Shown: positions 7,801-26,991 of the stretch, piece after piece
Layout: every line of letters begins with the position of its first letter
How positions within the stretch are numbered: the stretch's first letter is position 1
Assembly (NCBI GenBank): GCA_964016885.1
Contig: OZ024751.1
Coordinates: 53,134,001-53,198,000, forward strand
Source: Eledone cirrhosa
Lineage: Eukaryota
Direction of reading: 5' to 3'
Length of the DNA: 64,000 nt
Notes under the pieces: generated by a model
Databases searched by the model: none
Told to the model about the DNA's origin: nothing
What the model saw: the letters and a program-made list of their open reading frames with translations, nothing else
Translations under genes and position numbers: made by a program

Positions 7801-8748
7801 AAACCTGCCAGATAGTCCTATATGAGCGAGACACGGTCACCTGACCAACCTTGCCTCAAGTGGGACAACTCCCGTCTAACCCATGCTAGCATGGAAAATG
7901 GACGTTAAACGATGATGATGAGGATGATGATTATATATATATATATGTGGCAAATTGGCAGTCGTTAGAACGTCGGATAGAATGTCAGTCGTTAGAACAT
8001 CGGATAGAATGCTTTATGGTATTTGTTCCAGCTCTCTGCTCTCTGAGTTCAAATCCCGTCGAGGTCAGCTTTGCCTTTCATTCTTTCGAGGTCGATAAAA
8101 AAGTACCAGGGGGCAATTCTTCCTCTATATCCCTTTCTATCTTTCTCTGGAAGAAATCTGCTGTACTCAGGCCTGGAGAGGGATGGGCTCCGCAAGGTTT
8201 ATATAGGTTTACTATACCATATAAATATATATATATAATGAAATGCTAAAAAAAACAATTATATTTACATTAATTTCAAAGTTATTTAATTTATTCGCTT
8301 TTTTATTTCTATCTTCCTTATTTTTGTTTTAATTTCTCCTATTAAAATTACCAGCCCAACCCAGAAGCACGAGATGTGTAATTTCTATGTTATGTACTAC
8401 GTTGATGGTGATAGGATTCCGGAAGATAATTACTGCATATCGCAAGGGCCACTACGCTGGTCTTGGAGAAATTTCTACTTCCAGCGCCGACTCAAGATGT
8501 CCAATTCCCCAAACACGATAAGTGTGGAACCAGATTCTAAGAAGTACTACCCTCAGTCGATTTTACAGAATGAAGTGGCTCAAAATGCAGAAGATGGAGA
8601 GGTGGTGGATAGAGGTGAGAGAGATGATGATGGAATGCAAAATGACGAAATCAGCAACTTGTTAAATATCTTACGTGAGGCAGAAAACAAAGAAGAGATG
8701 GAAGAAGAGAACCAAAGAATTCAAAGATACCTGGGATCTAATTACTAA
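1753..8748 (+). CDS. Phm: Peptidylglycine alpha-hydroxylating monooxygenase (PHM), 3' part of a spliced gene (8 exons; 5' exons lie upstream of the window)
   Basis: Manually spliced exons 1753-1842, 2100-2148, 3404-3468, 4006-4086, 5320-5396, 6104-6157, 6952-7001 and 8355-8748. All introns are GT-AG and phase-compatible. Protein reads DVGFKVGG..YLVMQIHY..TDSSGLTL..AGVYLLGTGG..HPFSYRTHTH..GRVVSGY..GRKNPQLPQMFY..GDILAARC..HEMCNFYVMYY, with the CuH His (QIHY) and CuM ligands (HTH, EMC) of PHM. Confidence 0.95.
2100..2148 (+). CDS. Phm: PHM exon (KNQTDSSGLTLTVTDGP)
   Basis: ttgtag acceptor, gtaagt donor, phase 1/2 consistent; DxSG motif. Confidence 0.9.
2299..2450 (+). mobile_element. tRNA-derived SINE
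   Basis: A box (tggcttagtggttagagc) and B box (gagttcaattc), followed by a ccttgagcaagacactttatttcacattgctccagt body. Reverse copies occur near 14650-14720 and 49780-49985. Confidence 0.75.
3404..3468 (+). CDS. Phm: PHM exon (IKRRAGVYLLGTGGVIPRRSV)
   Basis: tttcag acceptor, gtgagt donor; AGV.LL.T.G.IP motif. Confidence 0.9.
4006..4086 (+). CDS. Phm: PHM exon (VYLETACLYNEKIILHPFSYRTHTHTHG; CuM HxH)
   Basis: ttgtag acceptor, gtaagt donor; HPFxYRTHTH motif. Confidence 0.95.
5320..5396 (+). CDS. Phm: PHM exon (RVVSGYLIHNGKWHELGRKNPQLPQ)
   Basis: aaacag acceptor, gtataa donor; VVSGY..G.W..G...PQLPQ motif. Confidence 0.93.
6104..6157 (+). CDS. Phm: PHM exon (MFYNTTTPGMLIKRGDIL)
   Basis: ttgcag acceptor, gtaagt donor, phase 0/0. 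Confidence 0.92.
6629..6790. repeat. 44-bp tandem repeat, about 3.6 copies, in a PHM intron
   Basis: Unit cattgttagaaatatttgaaccaaatatcataaaacag(a/g)gacca starts at 6629, 6673, 6717 and 6761. Confidence 0.9.
6952..7001 (+). CDS. Phm: PHM exon (AARCTMLNQDGYDVYIG)
   Basis: ttccag acceptor, gtaaat donor; AARC motif. Confidence 0.92.
7290..7930. mobile_element. RTE-clade LINE remnants (minus-strand RT fragment plus plus-strand 3' UTR with (GAT)n tail)
   Basis: 7300-7465 resembles 23250-23390 (IEVVDS..YLGD). 7545-7930 is the reverse complement of the RTE 3' UTR at 22430-22790. Confidence 0.75.
7947..8110 (+). mobile_element. tRNA-derived SINE with Deu/Nin-type central domain
   Basis: gagttcaaatccc..gaggtcagctttgcctttcat..gggtcgataaaa..gtaccag motif, shared with copies near 2727, 28690, 48050 (-), 57030 (-) and 59949. 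Confidence 0.7.
8355..8748 (+). CDS. Phm: PHM terminal coding exon (PTQKHEMCNFYVMYY...acidic tail...LGSNY*)
   Basis: taccag acceptor; EMCNFY carries the CuM methionine; open to TAA at 8746-8748. Confidence 0.93.
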
Positions 8749-11689: not shown

Positions 11690-12430
11690 CAACCGAGTCC
11701 CACTGTCAGAGTTAATGCTGATCACCTGGTGCAATTGGGCAAGATAAGCTTTTATCACCTCATCCCAGGTCTTTGTGGGTCTCTCCACAAAGGCTTCCAT
11801 CGACTTTTAGTGTTCTGCACCTTTTTATGCAGGCTGTCATCCTTCATACGCATCACATGTTCATACCAACGTAATCTCCTCTCTTGCTTCGCTGTTCGCG
11901 TATATTAATTACTATTACACATCCATCGGAGCATGCAAGCTTCATTTCTTTCTAATCTACGCAAATCTTCTGCACACAACACCCAGGTCTCACAACCATG
12001 CAACATTGCTATTCGTATGCACGCATCAAAGTCTGCCTTTCATTTTGCGGGAAAGTCCTTTTGTAGTTAGCAGTGGTAGTAGCTCCCTGAATTTCTTCCA
12101 TCCCGTTCTTACCCTGGTTACTGTACTTTCAGAACACTTACCTTCGCTGTAAACCTAGGTTGCAGAAGCTGGCTACTGTTTCTACCAAGCCCTCCCAGAA
12201 TTTGGTAGTGCTTGTTACCCGTGGTCGTTTGCTGCTTATTGCCCTGGTGCAACTGCTACATGTAAAGCCTACATTCTTAGCTAAACTCCTTGAGATCCCA
12301 CTACATCTCTTGTGTACCCATAGTTTGCATTTGGGGCAGAACATGGAATTTCTACCTACACCTTTTCTACAGACTGAGCAAGGCCATTTCCCTGAGGGTA
12401 TCTAGGTTGTTTTCTCTTCTACTTACGAGG
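11690..12430 (-). mobile_element. Degenerate RTE-clade LINE fragment
   Basis: CKLWVHKRCSGI..FTCSSC Cys-rich insert, GWKKFRELLPLL and RWYEHVMR motifs; homologous to 22791-23460. Confidence 0.8.
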
Positions 12431-12599: not shown

Positions 12600-13090
12600 C
12601 GTTGTCATGTACTAACCTTCCCCTGGTAAGCAGTACAATGAACCAAATATCTATGTGTATGGTAAACGACTTGAAGTGATCGATCAGTTTGTCTACCTGG
12701 GAAGCACTGTCATTCGATACAGCAACCTTGATAATGAAATTCCACACAGGATTAGGAAAGCAATTAATGCTTTCGGAAAGCTAGAAAGGCGCCTCTGAGG
12801 TCGGCGAAACATATGCAAGACGACAAAGGTAACAGTGTACAAGACATGTGTGCTCTCTTCTCTTATTCATGCCAGCGAGACCTGAGTCACATATCGACAC
12901 CACCTTAAACAGTTGGAACGTTTCCATAAGATGTGTCTCAGACTGATCCATGTCGTTCACTGGAGGGACCACATTACTGATGTCGAGATTTTGGAAAGCT
13001 CTCTGTGTGAAAACATAGAATCTCTTGTGCTTAAGCAAAGACTTCGATGGAGTGCTCACCTTGGCAGGATGAAGGACACCAAAACAACTC
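12600..13090 (+). mobile_element. RTE-type LINE RT C-terminal fragment (different family)
   Basis: LEVIDQFVYLGS..EIPHRIRKAINAFGKL..TKVTVYKTCVLSSL..LERFHKMCLR..RLRWSAHLGRM, with stop codons. Confidence 0.8.
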
Positions 13091-13710
13091 TTTTTGCTCC
13101 TGTTTGCGCTTAGTATAGACCACATTGCCCGGAGTATCATGGCTGCTCTCAACGTTTGGTACCTGGATGATGCTACGGTGGGCGGGCCCGTAGAGACTGT
13201 CTGTCATGATCTACAATTGGTGGTTTCTGCTCCAGCAGGAATCGGCCTCAACACGTCCAAGTCGGAGGTAGTGAATGTCAACCACGATGCTGAGAGCTTT
13301 GCTCCCTCGATCTCGGACGTGCGGTCCATTCTCCTCCAGGTACAGGTGACCCCCAAAGAGGATGTCCTCATCCTCGAGTCACCGATCCATCTGTTCCACC
13401 ATCAGGTCCAGGCTCCAGCAACTCAACATCCTCACGAGCCGACTGGGCATGATTGACGGCCACCCAGCCCTCTTCCTGTTAAGGAACTGCTTCGCCATGC
13501 TGAAGCTCCTCTATACCCTCCGCAGCGCTCCGTGCTACAGCCACGCATCTCTCTTCGCTGACCCCGACACTTGTACCCGAGCGGCAGCTGTGGAGATATG
13601 CAACGTCAGGTTTGACGACATTGGATGGCAACAGGCAAGCTTACCTGTTAGATATGGTGGCCTTGGCCTCCGGTCCCATATCTCGCTGGCGTTGACGGCG
13701 TTTCTTTCGT
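13091..13710 (+). mobile_element. CRE-like (early-branching non-LTR) retrotransposon RT fragment
   Basis: WYLDDATVGG catalytic motif, then GLNTSKSEV, LLRNCF..KLLYTLR and WQQASLPVRYGGLGLR; GC-rich and frameshifted. Confidence 0.75.
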
Positions 13711-14988
13711 TGGCAACTTCATATCACGTCCTCGTCTTTTACTTTGTTCATATTCGACACTTCATCTACATTCTTAGTTTCTTTCTTTAGTTAGTTACCT
13801 CCTTTTATGTAGGACACGGTTTTCTTGTTTCCTCTATTTAAATGTATATATAATAAAAGACAAAATCGGAAGAATTTTATAAAGTTTAATATTCTTTTTA
13901 TTGATAACGTATGTAAATGACTTTCATTTCTTTTTACAGATGTCCAGCTGTAACAAATGGGAATGACGAAATTTCTGTTAATAAAGAAAATTTACATATT
14001 ATATACGAATATAGAGAGTTACTTCTTCTTTATGGAACTCTTCTCTTTTTTCGATTGACTTCCGGTTCTTTGAAATAAAATCATTTCATATATTGTTTTC
14101 CTCATGTATGGAGGTATGTAATATTTGCTTTGCTGTATACTCGAATTATCTAAGAAACTAAACCCCCTCTCTCTATACACATACATTTTATTAAATACAC
14201 AGTTTATGTCAATAACTCTCACACTTTGGATATTGTGTTCATGTGAAGAGGTATTTTATGTGGCTTTCTGGAACATCTTCACTCACTGGACACATGCTTT
14301 CTTTTAAATAAAATTTAGAAAACTACACATACAAATAGTGTTACCTCTTCTAAGAAACTAAACTAAGCCATCTTAACACTATATATATTCTTTCTAAGAA
14401 ATATAACTCAAATTTCTCTCTATAAACATCATTCTGTAGATCTTTCTTTATTGAATACATAGTAAGAAAAAATATATAAACCTTCTTCACTATACCTTTT
14501 CTAAGAAACCTCTATATACAGCTACATTTTTATTATCTTTATTTCTTTCACACCTAATGAAGCATGGCAGCTTCATTTCTCGCTCACACGTGTTCTCTTG
14601 TACGTAGAGAGAAACTTTTTGTTGTCCAACTAATTTCTACTGTGTGATTTGGAGCAACGTGAAATAAAGAGTCTTGCTCAAGAACACAACGCAAAGTCCG
14701 GTCTGAAAATCGAAATCACGATTGTAAAGCTTGACGACTTAACGAATTTTTTTTAGATATCATCATCGTAATCAAAGATTAACTGTTGTTCAGTGTTAAC
14801 TAGATCGATATCACTTTAACCTACGTAACATAGAACCATTTACATTCTTAGTTTTTTCTTACGAAACTTCATTTATTTTCTTTGTTCCTTTTCAACACTC
14901 CATTTACATTCTTAGTTTCTTTCTTTAGAAACTCCATTCTTAGTTTCTTTTTGCGTCATTGACATTCCTAGTTTCTTTCTTTAGAAAC

Positions 14989-15208
14989 TGGTTAGAAAAA
15001 GCTATCTCACTTACCGCTTTTCATAGGCACCGCTAAATCCCACTGCTGGTTTCTCCTCTTCCACGTGCGTCCAACTCCTTAACACCGGGAGCTGCCAAAA
15101 CTCGTGTCCACACCGTTGCTGGTCACCACTAGAGAGAGAGCCATCTGCTGGCTCTTCCGGTCGAGCACTCCACCGCTTCCGGCCACCGCACGCCACACTA
15201 TACCCACA
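14989..15208 (-). repeat. 3' LTR (220 bp)
   Basis: Direct repeat of 18780-19031 with 8 substitutions and a 32-bp indel; preceded on the minus strand by a purine-rich PPT (15209-15238). Confidence 0.93.
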
Positions 15209-17960
15209 TGCCCCCCTGATCAATTTCCCCCTCGTCCTTCTGCATATGAAAGTCTGCTGTCCAGGTTGGTGGTTTACGACTTCTTTGCGATCTTCGCAGT
15301 GTTGGGGCAGCACTTTGGGTTTCCTCTTCCTCGGAGTCCGTTGACACAGTGATTCTACGGACATCCAGGACATGACGTGGTACTCCGTCCACGGACACAT
15401 TGTTCTGGGAATTTACGGCCGTCACCGTTCCCCTTCCCCATTGAGATGTGCAACGTGCATCTGGGGGCTTAACCCAGACTTCTTCGCCCACCTGCACGAA
15501 TGCACTCTCTCTCCCCACTGGCCGTTGTGGTGGCGTGCACGGGTGCCGCCACTCGTATCTGAATACTGCTCTGTCTGGCACCGATTCCTCGACCTGTCCC
15601 ACCCGAGGGGACATGTTGTACCAGAACACTGCCTCCATTGGTGAGATATGGCCCCGCTCTGCCATTGCCTTGATCGTCCGGTGGTGTCGCTCCACAATTC
15701 CATTCCCGCTCGGCCTGTGCGCTGCTCTGAAGAAACGGTCCACCTTCCATCCATCGAGCAGCGCCTCCGAGCGGAACGCTACGCTGTTGTCCATCAGCAG
15801 TTCGTCCACAGGGCCCCGCTCCAAGAACACCTCTCAACGTCCGCATGATTTCCTCGGCCGTTCCAGTCTTCATCTCCCTCCATATCGCCATCTGTCCTGG
15901 TTCACAGTCGACCATCGAGAGGTACGTTCCCTGTCGGTAGTGCGTTACATCCACCGCCAATCGCTTCCAGTCGCGTGGCTTCCCGTTTCGTGTACACCCG
16001 GGGCGGGATCAATGGACTGACATCGGACGCAGCCTCTAACCACCCTTTGAACACTGTGTCTGTTGACGTCCGAGTCGATTCTCCTGGCTAGGAACAGGCT
16101 CCTATCCACTCCCATGTGGTGCATGTCATGCAACCCTTTCAGATCCGACTCGGTCAGCCGACACACGTCTTCTACCTCCTCCTGCGCTTCCATCCAGGCT
16201 TTCTTCACCCTAGTTAAGACGTCCGCCCTATTTTTCTCTGAGGGCACGAAAACTACGCTCAGCCTCAGGTCGAACTTGGTGGCCAGCTCTCCTAAAGTTC
16301 CCAGGCGGCGCTTTATCAGCATCTCCACCACCCCTCTCGTTCGCACTCTCTTCTCACCCATCCGAGTACAGTAGCCGATTCGGTGCGTATCTCGATGGTG
16401 CGCAATCCCCACTTCAGGGCGAGGTTCATCTCTCTCAACACTGCGTCCAGTTCGGCCACATTGATGTGGTTGCAGTCGTCCTTCCTAAGCCAGGCTGCAT
16501 CCTCGACCTCAACACCTATCTCCAACGTTACACCCAGCGCTATGCTGCTGGCATCGCACCATACGGTCCTGCTCTGTGATTTGGGAACATACCAGCGTCC
16601 CCGCACTAGGTCGTCGGCCTTCACCCTCCCCACGATCTCCTGCATCATGGCCACCGTCCTCTCTCCCACTCTGTCACTCCTCCCTCTCGCCTCTTGACAT
16701 AGCTGCATGCCGTCCGGAGCCACCCAGCAATCGGGTAGTGACCCACAAACTTTCCACACACCGAGAAAAGCTCCCGCCTACTTATACTTGGGCCCAGTTC
16801 TGGAACTTCATTTCCCCTCTGGAATACCAAGACGCCTGTCCTGTCTCGCCGTAGCCTAAGTCCCAGCGCGGCTCCTCCCTCCAATGCTTCTGACGGCTTC
16901 GCAGCCAGTCCATACCCCAGTAAATGGCTCGTGACCTCCGCCGCCGACACCACAGACTCGTCCACTAGGATGTCAATATAGGAGTTAGTGGCCCTCTTTA
17001 TCTTGTCGGCCTTTCCCAGAATGGTCTTGAGGACCGCCGCCATGATCTTCGGTGCGGAGCTCAGCCCGAAACCGAGCCTAGTCAGGCAATATGTCCGGCC
17101 CTTATACCTGATCAGCTGATACTGCCAGAGCTTCTCATCTATATGCAATTGCAAGTATGCCGACTTTAGATCTACGATTGCTGAACCCCCGTCATGCGTC
17201 TCCACTCACGCAGGGTTTCCCCACAGACATCCGTGACCTCGCCACCCGTGTGGCATGACACGTGCTCGTTCAGCTCTCGAAAGTCCAGCACCGGCCTCAC
17301 TTTGTTCTTCGTGGGTTGCGCCACTGCCATTAACGGCAATACTCCGCACTTCACCTCCTCTTTCCAGGGAAGCAGTATGCCCTCTTCAATCCATCTCTCT
17401 ACCTCTCGCTCCTAATGTTTCCCTTCAATGTGTGTTGATAGCAGCCCACTTTGGTCTTCAGTGTTGGTGGTTCTCCCTTCCAGTACCACTCAACAACCCA
17501 TCGAACACGGCCTTGAAGTCTTTGTCCTGCACAGTGTAAGCGGGGTATTTCTCCTCGTGGGCCTTCTGGTTCTCCTGTCGCGCATACCGATGCAGCGGCG
17601 CCAAACGACACACCAACGTTGTTCACTGTGACGCATCCTAGACGGCCAATTGCGTCCATGCCCATAACCACGCCGATCCCATCCACCACGCTGTCTACTA
17701 CGATGGCAGAAAGCCTTATTTTCCTTCCCCGTACTGCTATTTCCATCTCGCTGCGACCTCTGCATTCAATTTTCCTGCCTTCGACTGCCCTTACGCTGCT
17801 CTTCCCTCTCCACTCTGCGCCACCCCCGCGGTCACCACTGTCGTCGTACAGCCCGTGTCCACGAGGGCTCGCTGTGGCTTTCCCCTCACGAAGACTTCCA
17901 CCACGGGCAGCGCCTCTACTCGTAAGGGGCAACTACCGGCGCAGTAGTTCCCCTTGGATC
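15209..17960 (-). pseudogene. pol: Retrotransposon pol (protease, RT, RNase H, integrase), with frameshifts
   Basis: PR ALVDTGC near 17870; RT 17400-16800, where the expected YIDD reads YIDI; RNase H WCDAS..ELDAV near 16560-16440; IN HDMHH..CVRC, AVDVTHY, MDNS, NGIVERHH. Confidence 0.92.
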
Positions 17961-18664
17961 GTTTCCCTGGTCGCAGTTAATAGCGATGTGGCCTGGTCGC
18001 TTACACCGGTAGCATATTATTTCCGGCCTTGACTCTCTGCAGTCTCTAGCCATGTGCGGGCTCTGGCACCGAAAACAGCGACTTCTAAACGTTCGCGTGC
18101 CGTGGTTGCCTCCCTTTCACCATTTCGCTGCCAGCTGTCTTGAGCCTCTGTAGTTGCTATCGCCGCAACACTCTTCTTGGCATCTTCTGCTATGATCCGG
18201 GCTTGTTCCACCAGTGAACGCATTTCTATTTCTTTGTAACCCGGGACTTGCTGCAATTTCACCGCTATGTCGTCTGGAAATCCATTTATGAACGCCAACC
18301 GCACCGTGCGTTCGCATTCCACCTGATATCCAGCCAACATGGCCAATCGCCGTATTTCCGCTGCGAAAATGTCAACGCGTTCACCGTTCCATCTAATTCT
18401 TGCCAGCTTAGCGAAAGCGGCTAACGGTCCCCCTGCGAACGCTTCCATCATGCGCCTCTCAATCTTTTGCGTATCTCTTTGGCTGTGTTCGTCCAACTCA
18501 AGGAAGAGTACCAACGCGTCCCCCTCGAGGTACAGTGCCATGAGGCCAGCCACATCTATCTTCTGCAAGCTTGCGACCAGCCGGACTTTTCGCAGCCAAG
18601 CGACAACATCACCTTCCCCGGTAAATTCCCTGATAGCTTCGCTTGTTCGTAGTCTTGTCGCCAT
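17915..18664 (-). pseudogene. gag: Retrotransposon gag with two zinc knuckles (one frameshift)
   Basis: ORF 18664-18017, then CFRCQSPHMARDC and CYRCKRPGHIAINC in a shifted frame. Confidence 0.85.
17924..17967 (-). promoter_or_regulatory. -1 programmed ribosomal frameshift signal (G GGA AAC plus stem-loop)
   Basis: Heptamer GGGAAAC in the gag frame at 17967-17961, a 5-nt spacer, then a hairpin at 17955-17924. The -1 frame runs directly into the protease LVDTG. Confidence 0.8.
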
Positions 18665-18779
18665 CTTCTAATTTGTCTTGCGGTACGTGATAAAAAAAAA
18701 CAACAGACTCCTCTCTGTTTTTCCAGTAGCTTTTTTTTTTTTTCAATCAGATCTCAGTTTCCAGTGCCGAAATAGCTTG

Positions 18780-19031
18780 TGGTTAGAAAAAGCTATCACA
18801 CTTACCGCTTTTCATAGGCGCCGCTAAATCCCACTGCTGGTTTCTCCTCTTCCACGTGCGTCCAACTCCTTAACACCGGGAGCTGCCAAAACTCGTGTCC
18901 GCACCTTTGCTGGTCACCACTAGAGAGAGAGCCATCTGCTGGCCCTTCCGGTCGAGCATCCTTCCGGCCAAGCACCCTTCCGGTCGAGCACTCCCCCGCT
19001 TCCGGCCACCGCAGGCCACACCATACCCACA
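18780..19031 (-). repeat. 5' LTR (252 bp)
   Basis: TG...CA ends, direct repeat of 14989-15208, with two extra 16-bp cttccggtcgagca-type units. Confidence 0.93.
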
Positions 19032-19203
19032 GAAACTTCATCTACATTCTTAGTTAATATTTTTCTTTCTAGATATCATCACCGTAATCAAATATTAACC
19101 ATATCGATATCGCTTTAACTTTTAATCTACGTAACAAATAACCATTTACATTCTTCTTTATACACTTCATCTACATTCCTAGTTCCTTTCTTTAAGAAAC
19201 TTC

Positions 19204-20286
19204 GGCACTACAATGCTATTAGCTGTCAGAAGTGAAAGTAGGCGAAGGTGACGTCATTCGTCAATCTTCTCAATCGTAAACATCGTTTATTTCCGTATTA
19301 CCACGCGTTATTTTAATAAAGCATATCGATGTAAGTGGAGTTACTTAAATGAAAATATAGGTGGCCCTTAAAAGGGCCAAATTAGAAAACAAATATATGG
19401 TTATCAAATTTTTTTTCACCAACCCTATACATTTATGAAGAAATGTTTAGAAAACACATTTTTTTCACCAACCTTATTCAAAAGCATGGATACAGTCCAC
19501 ATGGAGACAAGAGACAGTCCTCATGGAGACAGTCCCATTTTTTTTTCGCTACTTCCAACATGCGTTCACCACATGAAGGGCAGACCTTTTGTGTATTCAG
19601 AAGTCCATGATTTTTCAACCAATTGATGGTATCTGCTGTAGTAGCGGTAGCGATGGAAAGATCGCGATGGTTAATTCCATTAACACTTGGGTATATTGTA
19701 GAATTCATATTTTTCAACTTGCAAATGCGTGTATTATCACAAAGTGAAGATTAAAGTTTATTTATTTACACGTGGTGTTGGTGATAATTGTTGCTGATTG
19801 GTGGGGATTGTCTCCATGGGGACTGTCTCTTGTCTCCATATGGACTGTATCATGCTTTTGAATAAGGTTGGTGAAAAAAATTTGTTTTCTAAACATTTCT
19901 TCATAAATGTATAGGGCTGGTGAAAAAAAATTTGATAACCATATATTTGTTTTCTAATTTGGCCCTTTTAAGGGCCACCTATATTTTCATTTAAGTTAAC
20001 TCCACTGTTGGTGAAAATATAGTTCATGGTATTAGCTGTCAGAAGTAACTCCACTGTTAGGAAAATGATTAAATCCAATTTATTTGATAACCATGACTTG
20101 TTTTCTAATTTGGCCTTTTTAAGGGCCACCTATATTTTCATTTAAGTAACTCCACTTACATTGATATGCCTTATTAAAATATCGCGTGGTAATACGGAAA
20201 TAAACGATGTTTACGATTGAGAAGGTTGACGAATGACGTCACCTTCGCCTACTTTCACTTCTGACAGCTCATAGCATGGTAGTGCC
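19204..20286. mobile_element. Non-autonomous Merlin (IS1595/ISXO2-like) DNA transposon derivative
   Basis: Long TIRs starting GGCACTAC and ending GTAGTGCC; 8-bp TSD GAAACTTC (19196-19203 and 20287-20294). An internal minus-strand remnant WLKNHGLL..CPSCG..M resembles the Merlin transposase N-terminal zinc ribbon. Confidence 0.85.
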
Positions 20287-21594
20287 GAAACTTCATCTAT
20301 ATTCTTGGTATCTTTAAGAAACTTCATATACATTCTTAGTTTCTTTTTTTAGTTTTCTCTATTTATATGTATATGTAATAAAAGACAAAATTAGATGGAT
20401 TTTATAAAGTTTAATATTCTTTTTATTGATAACGTATGTAAATGACTTTCATTTCTTTTTACAGATGTCCAGCCTTCAAGGTTATATGCTGTGTTGTTTG
20501 GCGTAACAAGTGGGAATGGCGAAGTTTCTGTTAATAAAGAAAGTTTACATATTATGTACGAAACGTGTTCAGTACCGAAAAGTAAATAAAAAAGAAAAGA
20601 GTTTTATACAGGGGAAGTAACTCTAAATGAAGGGAGATAACTCTAATCAAATTTAGAGCAAAAAGGGTTAAGACGGATTCCTTGCGCGGTCCAGGATACA
20701 GGCCAGCATATAGCCAGCCTGCAAATAGTCCTGGCTGCTAACTAAACCGCGTGCTCTCACAACGATTCCATCTTCAGACACATAGAATGGCCACGCCATA
20801 CATAAACGACGAAGTCCGAAACGCTGCGTGCATCGCCACGCGAAGCCGTAATTCTAATAAGTAAAATTTTATTTATATTTTAATGGTTAGCATCTATATA
20901 TACACAGTTAACACATATATGGTTATTATATATAGATACATACCGAGTTAATACCTATATGTATACATACATATACATGTATATTAACAAAGGTACTCAT
21001 TTCGAAAAACTTTTTTATTTTTCAAATTACGTCAGGTTCGCTAATCTATACATTTACCTAATGGTATATATACCCACACAAAGACAAGATGGTGTAGGAT
21101 AGAATAAATCCAACAGGTGCGTGTGTTTTTATAGGCAGCATGACCTTGTTTCATTCGAAGGAAACCCTTGAACACACATTGGGTCAAGTATGAAATTTGT
21201 AGAAACAAAACAAATTTCAATCTTGATTACCCAACGGTTAAGAAGGATGGAATTTGCCCCGAAAAAGCTCCCACCGAGACGCAAGATTGAGCCTCGTTCT
21301 GAGATTCAGAAATGGCGGTATCATTAAGGACAACTAGGGCGCACGCCAACTTTACGGGCGCATTTTTAGGATTGGCGCCGCCATTAAGGCTAACTAGGGT
21401 GAACACCAACTTTATGGGCGCATTTTCAGGATTGGTCCACTTTGTCAAGGACTTCTTCCATCCTTCTGAGGCTATCCTCAAACTTACCATATTACCATTT
21501 TCAGTTGCTTCATATGTACTATCAGTGGGTTACAGACTGAGTTTGAATGTATCAACAGTAAAATGAGTGGGATATCTTCACGGATGTACAGAGC

Positions 21595-26730: not shown

Positions 26731-26991
26731 TCATGAATCTTTCATTCTCCTCTTCTTCAAAGCCCATCAAATCAACGATTCTACGGGCATCCAAGATGTG
26801 ACACAGTATCCCATCCATTCAGATGTGCAATGCACATTCGGGGGCTTAACCCAGACTTCGTATGTTTTTTAATGTAAAATAAAATTAGTATGAAGTTACG
26901 ACAAGTTTAGTATGTAATTGGGTGTGTGTGTCTTCTCACATTTTGTTTGTAATTTTTACTTTTTCTTATTTCTATAATTAATTTCTCTCAT

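Follow-up and report, generated by a model that had tools for sequence, protein, structure and literature searches.

What primes reverse transcription in an LTR retrotransposon when the site behind its 5′ LTR is complementary to the first bases of a tRNA? The window, meaning the whole 64-kb stretch of DNA that was analyzed, is AT-rich and eukaryotic, and raises this question through a decayed LTR retrotransposon of ~4 kb on its minus strand (14989–19031), flanked by a 5-bp target-site duplication (TSD; Table 1). The two LTRs are identical at 212 of 220 aligned bases, and the ends of the 5′ LTR, TGTGG and CCACA, form a perfect terminal inverted repeat. The 3′ LTR ends in CCA where the 5′ LTR ends in CCACA, and the TSD is nonetheless perfect (14984–14990); the shorter end could stem from 2-nt processing of the blunt end by integrase at the inner CA, or from a later slip. 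Directly before the G-rich polypurine tract (PPT), ATCA (often GATCA) is kept in the window (15217–15221) as well as in L018, L023, L032, L035, L037, and L040.

The insertion site is apparently an intron of a copper monooxygenase gene. Exon-sized matches to copper type II ascorbate-dependent monooxygenase domains lie on the plus strand at 1584–1844 and 8290–8745, and these probably represent the host gene. The element sits in a short repeat related to the nested long inverted repeats at 19196–20294, which have arms of 197, 146, and 48 nt (94–99%) and are MITE/foldback-like. LINE-like fragments occupy 12141–12401 and 12616–13790, one of them matching a PHD-finger, and a short remnant on the minus strand (26741–26859) resembles the integrase C-terminus of the family (E 8.5e-4). 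ARAGORN found no tRNA genes in the 64-kb window. A gag query against longer proteins gave no match, no relatives of the element were found in IMG/VR, and no RNA holder of it was listed.

Table 1. Annotated parts of the retrotransposon, given as window positions.
Feature	Position	Strand	Remarks
5′ target-site duplication GTTTC (element strand)	19032..19036	-	same 5-mer beyond 3′ LTR
5′ LTR, 254 nt, TGTGG...CCACA	18778..19031	-	internally 32 nt longer than 3′ LTR
Probable primer-binding site AGCTATTTCGGC	18766..18777	-	complement of tRNA-Phe(GAA) nt 1–12, adjoins LTR terminal CA
Leader 9-mer, pairing partner of U5 18787–18795	18727..18735	-	found in window copy, not kept in family
gag, ATG at 18664, two CX2CX4HX4C knuckles	17930..18664	-	zf-CCHC E 5e-9; frameshift near 18100
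Aspartyl protease region, frameshifted	17420..17930	-	
Reverse transcriptase, frameshifted	16570..17411	-	RVT_1 weak, DUF7047; catalytic motif damaged in window copy
RNase H, frameshift near 16355	16190..16570	-	Pfam RVT_3
HHCC-DDE integrase, frameshifted	15246..16150	-	
Polypurine tract (G6), ATCA in front	15209..15221	-	context common to many relatives
3′ LTR, 220 nt, ends CCA (without last CA of 5′ LTR)	14989..15208	-	
3′ target-site duplication GTTTC	14984..14988	-	

The plus strand at 18766–18777 reads GCCGAAATAGCT, its sole exact occurrence within the window, and the element strand (18777–18766) accordingly carries AGCTATTTCGGC between the 5′ LTR and gag. The original prediction had taken the plus-strand 12-mer for the start of animal tRNA-Phe and had proposed that the sequence behind the 5′ LTR is its complement. 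Printed sequences bear out both points with an exact 12/12 match to human and Drosophila tRNA-Phe(GAA), which begin with the 12-mer: GCCGAAATAGCT is identical to nt 1–12 of the human tRNA as printed in PMC11706605, and the sense-strand 12-mer forms the end of a Drosophila “tRNA Phe GAA 5′ probe” given in PMC7038984. The match stops there; tRNA nt 13 (C) lies opposite A and is unpaired, and nt 13–15 are mismatched to the LTR end. A 2-nt spacer between LTR and site had also been proposed. The CA in question is most likely the LTR's own end, and the spacer 0, since this CA completes the TGTGG..CCACA repeat and since in all three relatives with both LTRs and host flanks (L023, L032, L040) the site directly follows the terminal CA. 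In organism A, two contig pieces likewise end at 18778, a weak indication. In a second organism, contigs align to the window from 18763 on, over nothing but the site and the LTR end, and no differing letters fall inside 18766–18777 among the listed matches of four runs.

The RT piece of the window, used as query, retrieved 239 proteins, mostly on metagenome contigs of ~4 kb, with named matches in molluscs and crustaceans, among them Argonauta hians, Oratosquilla oratoria, Palaemon carinicauda, Petrolisthes manimaculis, Aplysia californica, and Trinorchestia longiramus. At E ≤ 1e-10 there were 583 clusters (50% identity), and only 1176 of 1.84 billion 50%-clusters were reached at E ≤ 0.001. Sixty-eight Pol proteins from the matches were aligned and 74 loci fetched. 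The gag start could be located in 45 of these, one of which begins inside gag, leaving 44 with upstream DNA. The full 12-mer class stands behind (A)CA in 43 of the 44; the other (L038) has only 48 nt upstream, at a contig start, and retains the last 8 nt of the site. Four further loci have the 12-mer class behind an LTR end, and 27 yielded no LTR-gag junction. Across 44 distinct contexts, columns −3 to −1 and site positions 1–6 and 10–12 are conserved at 98–100%, positions 7–9 are variable, and conservation drops to 55% at +13, the first position beyond tRNA nt 1. The site is not part of the LTR, and it is missing behind 3′ LTRs at host junctions. When 4 near-duplicates and one very short locus were omitted, 43 distinct elements remained, with a median RT-RH identity of 50% (minimum 38%). 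Two conditions that the original prediction had named as refuting it were not borne out: the 12-mer class is kept among relatives at this level of identity, and none of the 43 elements has a TGG, normal or hidden, within 6 nt of the LTR end. Four acidic positions of RNase H are invariant or almost so in the 68 relatives.

The distance from site to ATG ranges from 0 to 104 nt, and the first ATG often follows by 0–7 nt (L002, L003, L032, L047, L048, L060, L071, and others), where a bound primer would cover the likely translation start. At position +13, 37 of the 43 elements have A or C and one has G, and the base differs between the very close relatives L036 and L055. This bias may reflect untemplated addition after the primer has been copied to its 5′ end, a hint only, as the elements are related and not independent. 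Many of the metagenome contigs (L003, L012, L017, L018, L020, L022, L027, L031, L035) consist of a one-LTR unit in circular permutation or of a tandem array, with the frames intact, which suggests LTR circles or active elements.

Written as tRNA nt 4–6, the variants at 47 loci are TAG (14), GAA (12), GCG (11), GGG (4), and GTG (2); the remaining 4 of the 47 sites have 1–3 further changes, and two of these belong to frameshifted copies nested in the TAG clade. Scans for tRNAs, which imposed GCC-nnn-ATAGCT, retrieved eukaryote-type tRNA-Phe(GAA) genes beginning with the GAA, GCG, GTG, and TAG variants, the match to the sites being by sequence and not host by host. The IMG/VR scan gave 11 loci, one of which (L085) is a eukaryote-type tRNA-Phe(GAA) with a TAG start. 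The scan of prokaryote genomes gave 75 loci, with 47 matches to archaeal tRNA-Phe, which were set aside, and 31 matches on contigs filed as bacterial, starting with GAA (12), GCG (8, in 2 records), GTG (5), GGA (2), and four single others. Many of these 31 have A34 tRNAs as neighbors (Ser-AGA, Ala-AGC, Ile-AAT, Pro-AGG, Thr-AGT; 20 loci scanned), from which we infer that they are contaminants of eukaryotic origin. Clusters of eukaryote-type tRNA genes occur in one IMG/VR contig and several bacterial MAGs (L085; L209–L277), probably through host contamination.

Four of the five recurrent variants fall within a tRNA set that covers 9 of 64 triplets (hypergeometric p 0.0009, with the index variant counted and the constant letters imposed). 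For the GGG variant, the scans yielded no eukaryote-type tRNA-Phe. In viral contigs, the GGG start occurs mostly on Thr and Ile tRNAs (tRNA starts at 25 of 101 loci, a single one of them Phe and of bacterial type). Not every variant therefore has a fixed isotype. The GCG site could also pair with a GTG tRNA through one G-U. In the TAG tRNA of L085 the 3′ acceptor strand carries a wobble base, whereas the site complements the 5′ strand by Watson-Crick pairing, which rules out, for the TAG variant, that the site is a copy of the tRNA 3′ strand; for GAA and GCG the two are not separable. On an RT-RH tree of 47 rows (L072 omitted), the variants are clustered yet recur on separate starred branches, with at least four changes each for GAA and GCG. 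Among distant elements, pairs from one data set share a variant in 9 of 12 cases and pairs from different data sets in 119 of 869 (permutation p 0.0017, from three data sets and pairs that are not independent). Such a pattern would be expected of a site that tracks a host RNA.

On this comparative sequence evidence, the site is real and conserved, and it very likely serves as the place where the first 12 bases of tRNA-Phe bind as primer, with a Tf1-like geometry. That nt 1–12 of tRNA-Phe themselves act as the primer is probable to a high degree, and the very short 5′ tRNA primer put forward in the original prediction remains the best reading, supported comparatively by the family-wide conservation of the site. 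In the mechanism that we propose, tRNA-Phe would be packaged, and its 5′ end would anneal to the site while the acceptor and D stems are strand-invaded, probably with assistance from Gag/NC. The element's own RNase H would then likely cut the tRNA within the D stem, at the 12/13 junction, and RT would extend the 12-base piece, starting minus-strand DNA at the last base of the LTR. The energy computed for the site-tRNA duplex is −18.7 to −22.7 kcal/mol. A 3′-OH at nt 12 would be required because the minus strand must begin at the last base of the LTR, where nt 12 is placed and nt 13 is mismatched; the standard scheme of minus-strand start is that outlined in PMC7175516. More speculatively, a plus-strand copy of the primer would run off at tRNA nt 1, with no modified-base stop needed, and run-off copying might re-template the site from the host tRNA in each cycle. 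In Ty1 and Ty3, the PBS is described as inherited from the RNA and not from the primer (PMC7472051), so such re-templating is not a given.

The whole chain, with RNase H cleavage of tRNA-Phe included, has about an even chance of being correct. A cut made by the element is favored over a host-made or trimmed fragment because Tf1 has the same geometry and because the acidic residues of the family's RNase H are kept. The Tf1 cut reportedly needs surrounding RNA structure (Lin and Levin), and this, together with the lack of a conserved U5-leader stem here, counts against the RNase H-cut chain. The U5-leader pairing of 9 bases that had been predicted to flank the site does exist in the window, with its leader arm one base away from where it had been placed; it is equalled or exceeded by 7 of 20 shuffles, and its extension to the family fails. 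With the site left open, 22 of 41 elements were above the shuffled mean (11.1 vs. 10.4 pairs), which is no excess, and a U5-PBS hairpin, 6–7 bp in the window, is likewise not family-wide. The window's U5 (18787–18800) can pair either with the site or with the leader 9-mer, a possible local switch in this element.

A primer made by the host is the alternative that survives best, and we consider it possible, at a clearly lower probability than cleavage by the element. Here a 5′ tRNA fragment or half would be trimmed to the duplex edge by an exonuclease, or the tRNA would be cut by a processing nuclease that measures a 12-bp helix. Twelve base pairs is the length of acceptor plus T stem, the ruler of RNases P and Z, which counts for a host-made primer. 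All of the evidence from site conservation also fits a host origin, and no conserved element structure would be needed, as none was found. In addition, 5′-tRFs and 5′ halves are recognized classes (PMC7515703), and copia is described as priming from an internal tRNA site (PMC3592414). However, the usual short 5′-tRFs end in the D loop, at ~14–16 nt, and nt 13–15 mismatch the LTR end, so a further step would still be needed, and a single cut site would have to be supplied by hosts of several phyla.

Two other explanations are improbable, each to a similar extent. In one, the site serves merely to hold an intact tRNA at its 5′ end, and the displaced 3′-CCA or another RNA primes elsewhere. Annealing of nt 1–12 does set the 3′ strand of the tRNA free, an ATGG, the start of gag, is often found no more than 7 nt behind the site, and the PBS of Ty3 is described as bipartite; but the spread of site-to-ATG distances speaks against a second fixed contact there, and in every element the site aims tRNA nt 12 at the last base of the LTR, the required minus-strand start. 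A second tRNA contact within 40 nt on either side was sought and is no longer than chance (mostly 4–6 nt). In the other explanation, the primer is a different RNA with these 12 bases at its start or end, such as a Thr or Lys tRNA or a tRNA-derived SINE RNA. Viral contigs do contain Thr, Val, and Ile tRNAs with GCC-nnn-ATAGCT starts, and GGG has so far no Phe match, but the window variant is identical to human and fly tRNA-Phe, four of the five variants match eukaryote-type tRNA-Phe, and another isotype would remain 5′-terminal tRNA priming.

The last two alternatives are very unlikely. Self-priming of the Tf1 type, by the 5′ terminus of the element's own RNA, would suit the length and position of the site, which resemble those of Tf1/Tj1 as published, and 6–7 nt of the window's U5 pair with it, but the site follows tRNA sequence and not LTR sequence. 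The window's LTR lacks a copy of the 12-mer, as had been claimed, its longest complementary run being 6 nt, like shuffles; across the family, the longest complement in the LTR or the upstream 400 nt is at most 6 nt in 47 of 48 elements (8 in L072), again as in shuffles, many LTRs being only partly on the contig. A chance likeness, or a conserved motif that serves protein binding or integrase and has nothing to do with priming, could be imagined from the adjoining att end and the palindromic AGCT, but it sits poorly with a 12/12 match at the PBS position, with variable positions that change in step with tRNA-Phe acceptor stems, and with the absence of the site from the LTR and from 3′ host junctions.

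The element that carries the site has Ty3/gypsy-type architecture, with TG..CA direct LTRs, a 5-bp TSD within the 4–6 bp of that group, a PPT, and gag followed by pol in the order PR-RT-RH-IN without a tether (by Pfam order; in the structural model RNase H follows RT, with no extra RNase H fold). Pfam reports RVT_3/RNase_H and DUF7047 and no RT_RNaseH families. A PDB profile search and Foldseek (PDB, BFVD) gave 11–20% identity to retroviral and caulimoviral Pol, and the AlphaFold model has a pLDDT of 80. Judged from PDB, the AlphaFold model, Foldseek, and ESM Atlas, Pol is of Ortervirales type, with no clade assigned. The RT stands far from typical gypsy RTs, and the family's LGFGL motif is missing from the reference RT alignments in the PMC11673190 supplement. 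In the Pol proteins P0001, P0072, and A1 and at window positions 16190–17411, an RT-RNase H atypical for Ty3/gypsy, with few distant RT matches, stands alongside protease and DDE integrase, and this combination possibly marks an unclassified LTR lineage. Peptidase_A17 and DUF1758/1759 are the Pao-type Pfam families. None was present in six full-length relatives and ESM Atlas gave one weak row at 0.86 only, so BEL/Pao was rejected. The family is filed here as an unplaced gypsy-like lineage, for which identity with a MolGy/PolGy clade is conceivable; the mollusc and annelid gypsy surveys that describe MolGy/PolGy make no mention of PBS or tRNA, and the family's motifs are absent from their readable supplements.

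PBS finders restricted to tRNA 3′ ends would miss sites of this kind. Full-text searches of the open literature returned no LTR element whose site complements the 5′ terminus of a tRNA, and the variant 12-mers gave four unrelated matches only; there is a minor but real chance that the site has been described elsewhere, for instance in Repbase Reports, GyDB, subscription journals, or the Troyka Figshare data. This literature lists priming from the tRNA 3′ end, from an internal tRNA site (copia), with a bipartite PBS (Ty3), and by the element itself (self-priming) (PMC7472051, PMC3592414, PMC7175516, PMC7773854, PMC4600332, PMC3587641, PMC12859917, PMC7515703, PMC6238403, PMC8556966). Use of the first 12 bases of a tRNA would add a priming mode, one that needs a cut in the D stem, and would tie tRNA priming to RNase H priming of the Tf1 type. 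Host defense through 5′-tRFs would be predicted here; 3′-tRFs are the described blockers (PMC7515703). The site could also be used as a 12-nt readout of the host tRNA-Phe, for host assignment and for tracing host switches of environmental elements. The most far-reaching reading, which as a whole we regard as tentative and rather doubtful, is that an unclassified, widespread animal LTR lineage, found in molluscs, crustaceans, and many metagenomes as hundreds of 50%-identity clusters and having an RT-RNase H that falls outside canonical gypsy, cuts host tRNA-Phe after nt 12 with its RNase H. This would be a fourth priming mode, equivalent to Tf1 self-priming in trans and plausibly an evolutionary link to it; the site would be re-templated on the tRNA of each new host and silenceable by 5′-tRFs and not by 3′-tRFs.

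Among known systems, Ty3/gypsy elements (Metaviridae) share with the window family the TG..CA LTRs, 5-bp TSD, PPT, CCHC gag, and PR-RT-RH-IN order without a tether. The ICTV account of Metaviridae gives a PBS complementary to the tRNA 3′ end (PMC7879559), whereas the PBS of the window family is not of that type; Tf1 is a known exception. Troyka elements/Kuafuorterviruses are likewise deep-branching, found in aquatic animals, and arranged PR-RT-RH-IN without a tether (PMC12440569, PMC11673190), and the Troyka text, as far as available, has no word on primer, tRNA, or PBS. Membership in Troyka/Kuafuorterviridae was rejected on four unmatched features: Troyka has CG..CG termini, a 3-bp TSD, a long zinc knuckle (CX2CX8-10HX4C), and an xADD motif (IADD/VADD/LADD), in contrast to TG..CA, 5 bp, CX2CX4HX4C, and YIDD in the window family. 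DIRS elements, which have RT-RH only and a tyrosine recombinase, resemble the family in some RT motifs, and look closer to it than the other rows, when compared by eye in the reference alignment of the PMC11673190 supplement. Unlike DIRS, the family has a protease, a DDE integrase (rve and Integrase_H2C2 matches), direct LTRs, and TSDs, and that assignment was likewise rejected.

The sites of copia and Ty5 pair with the anticodon arm of tRNA-iMet, and the priming fragment is 39 nt long. As in the window family, the primer is a 5′-containing piece of tRNA with a new 3′ end, and the PBS lacks TGG. In published descriptions, the copia primer site is an “internal site” of the tRNA (PMC3592414). 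Both are Ty1/copia elements with pol in the order PR-IN-RT-RH, whereas in the window family integrase comes last (PR-RT-RH-IN) and the site pairs with nt 1–12 of an elongator tRNA, tRNA-Phe, which would imply a cut in the D stem; the copia/Ty5 class was therefore rejected. In geometry the window family agrees with Tf1, of the Tf1/sushi group. Pairing with the PBS is reported for the first 11 bases of Tf1, with RNase H cleavage at nt 11/12 (PMC7175516; PMC4600332). Unlike in Tf1, the partner in the window family would be host tRNA-Phe, acting in trans; the LTR contains no complement, and a U5-leader stem is not conserved. In Tf1/Tf2/Tj1, as in the window family, a short PBS (11 vs. 12 nt) beside the 5′ LTR pairs with the extreme 5′ end of an RNA, and a cut at the edge of the duplex is needed to provide the 3′-OH.
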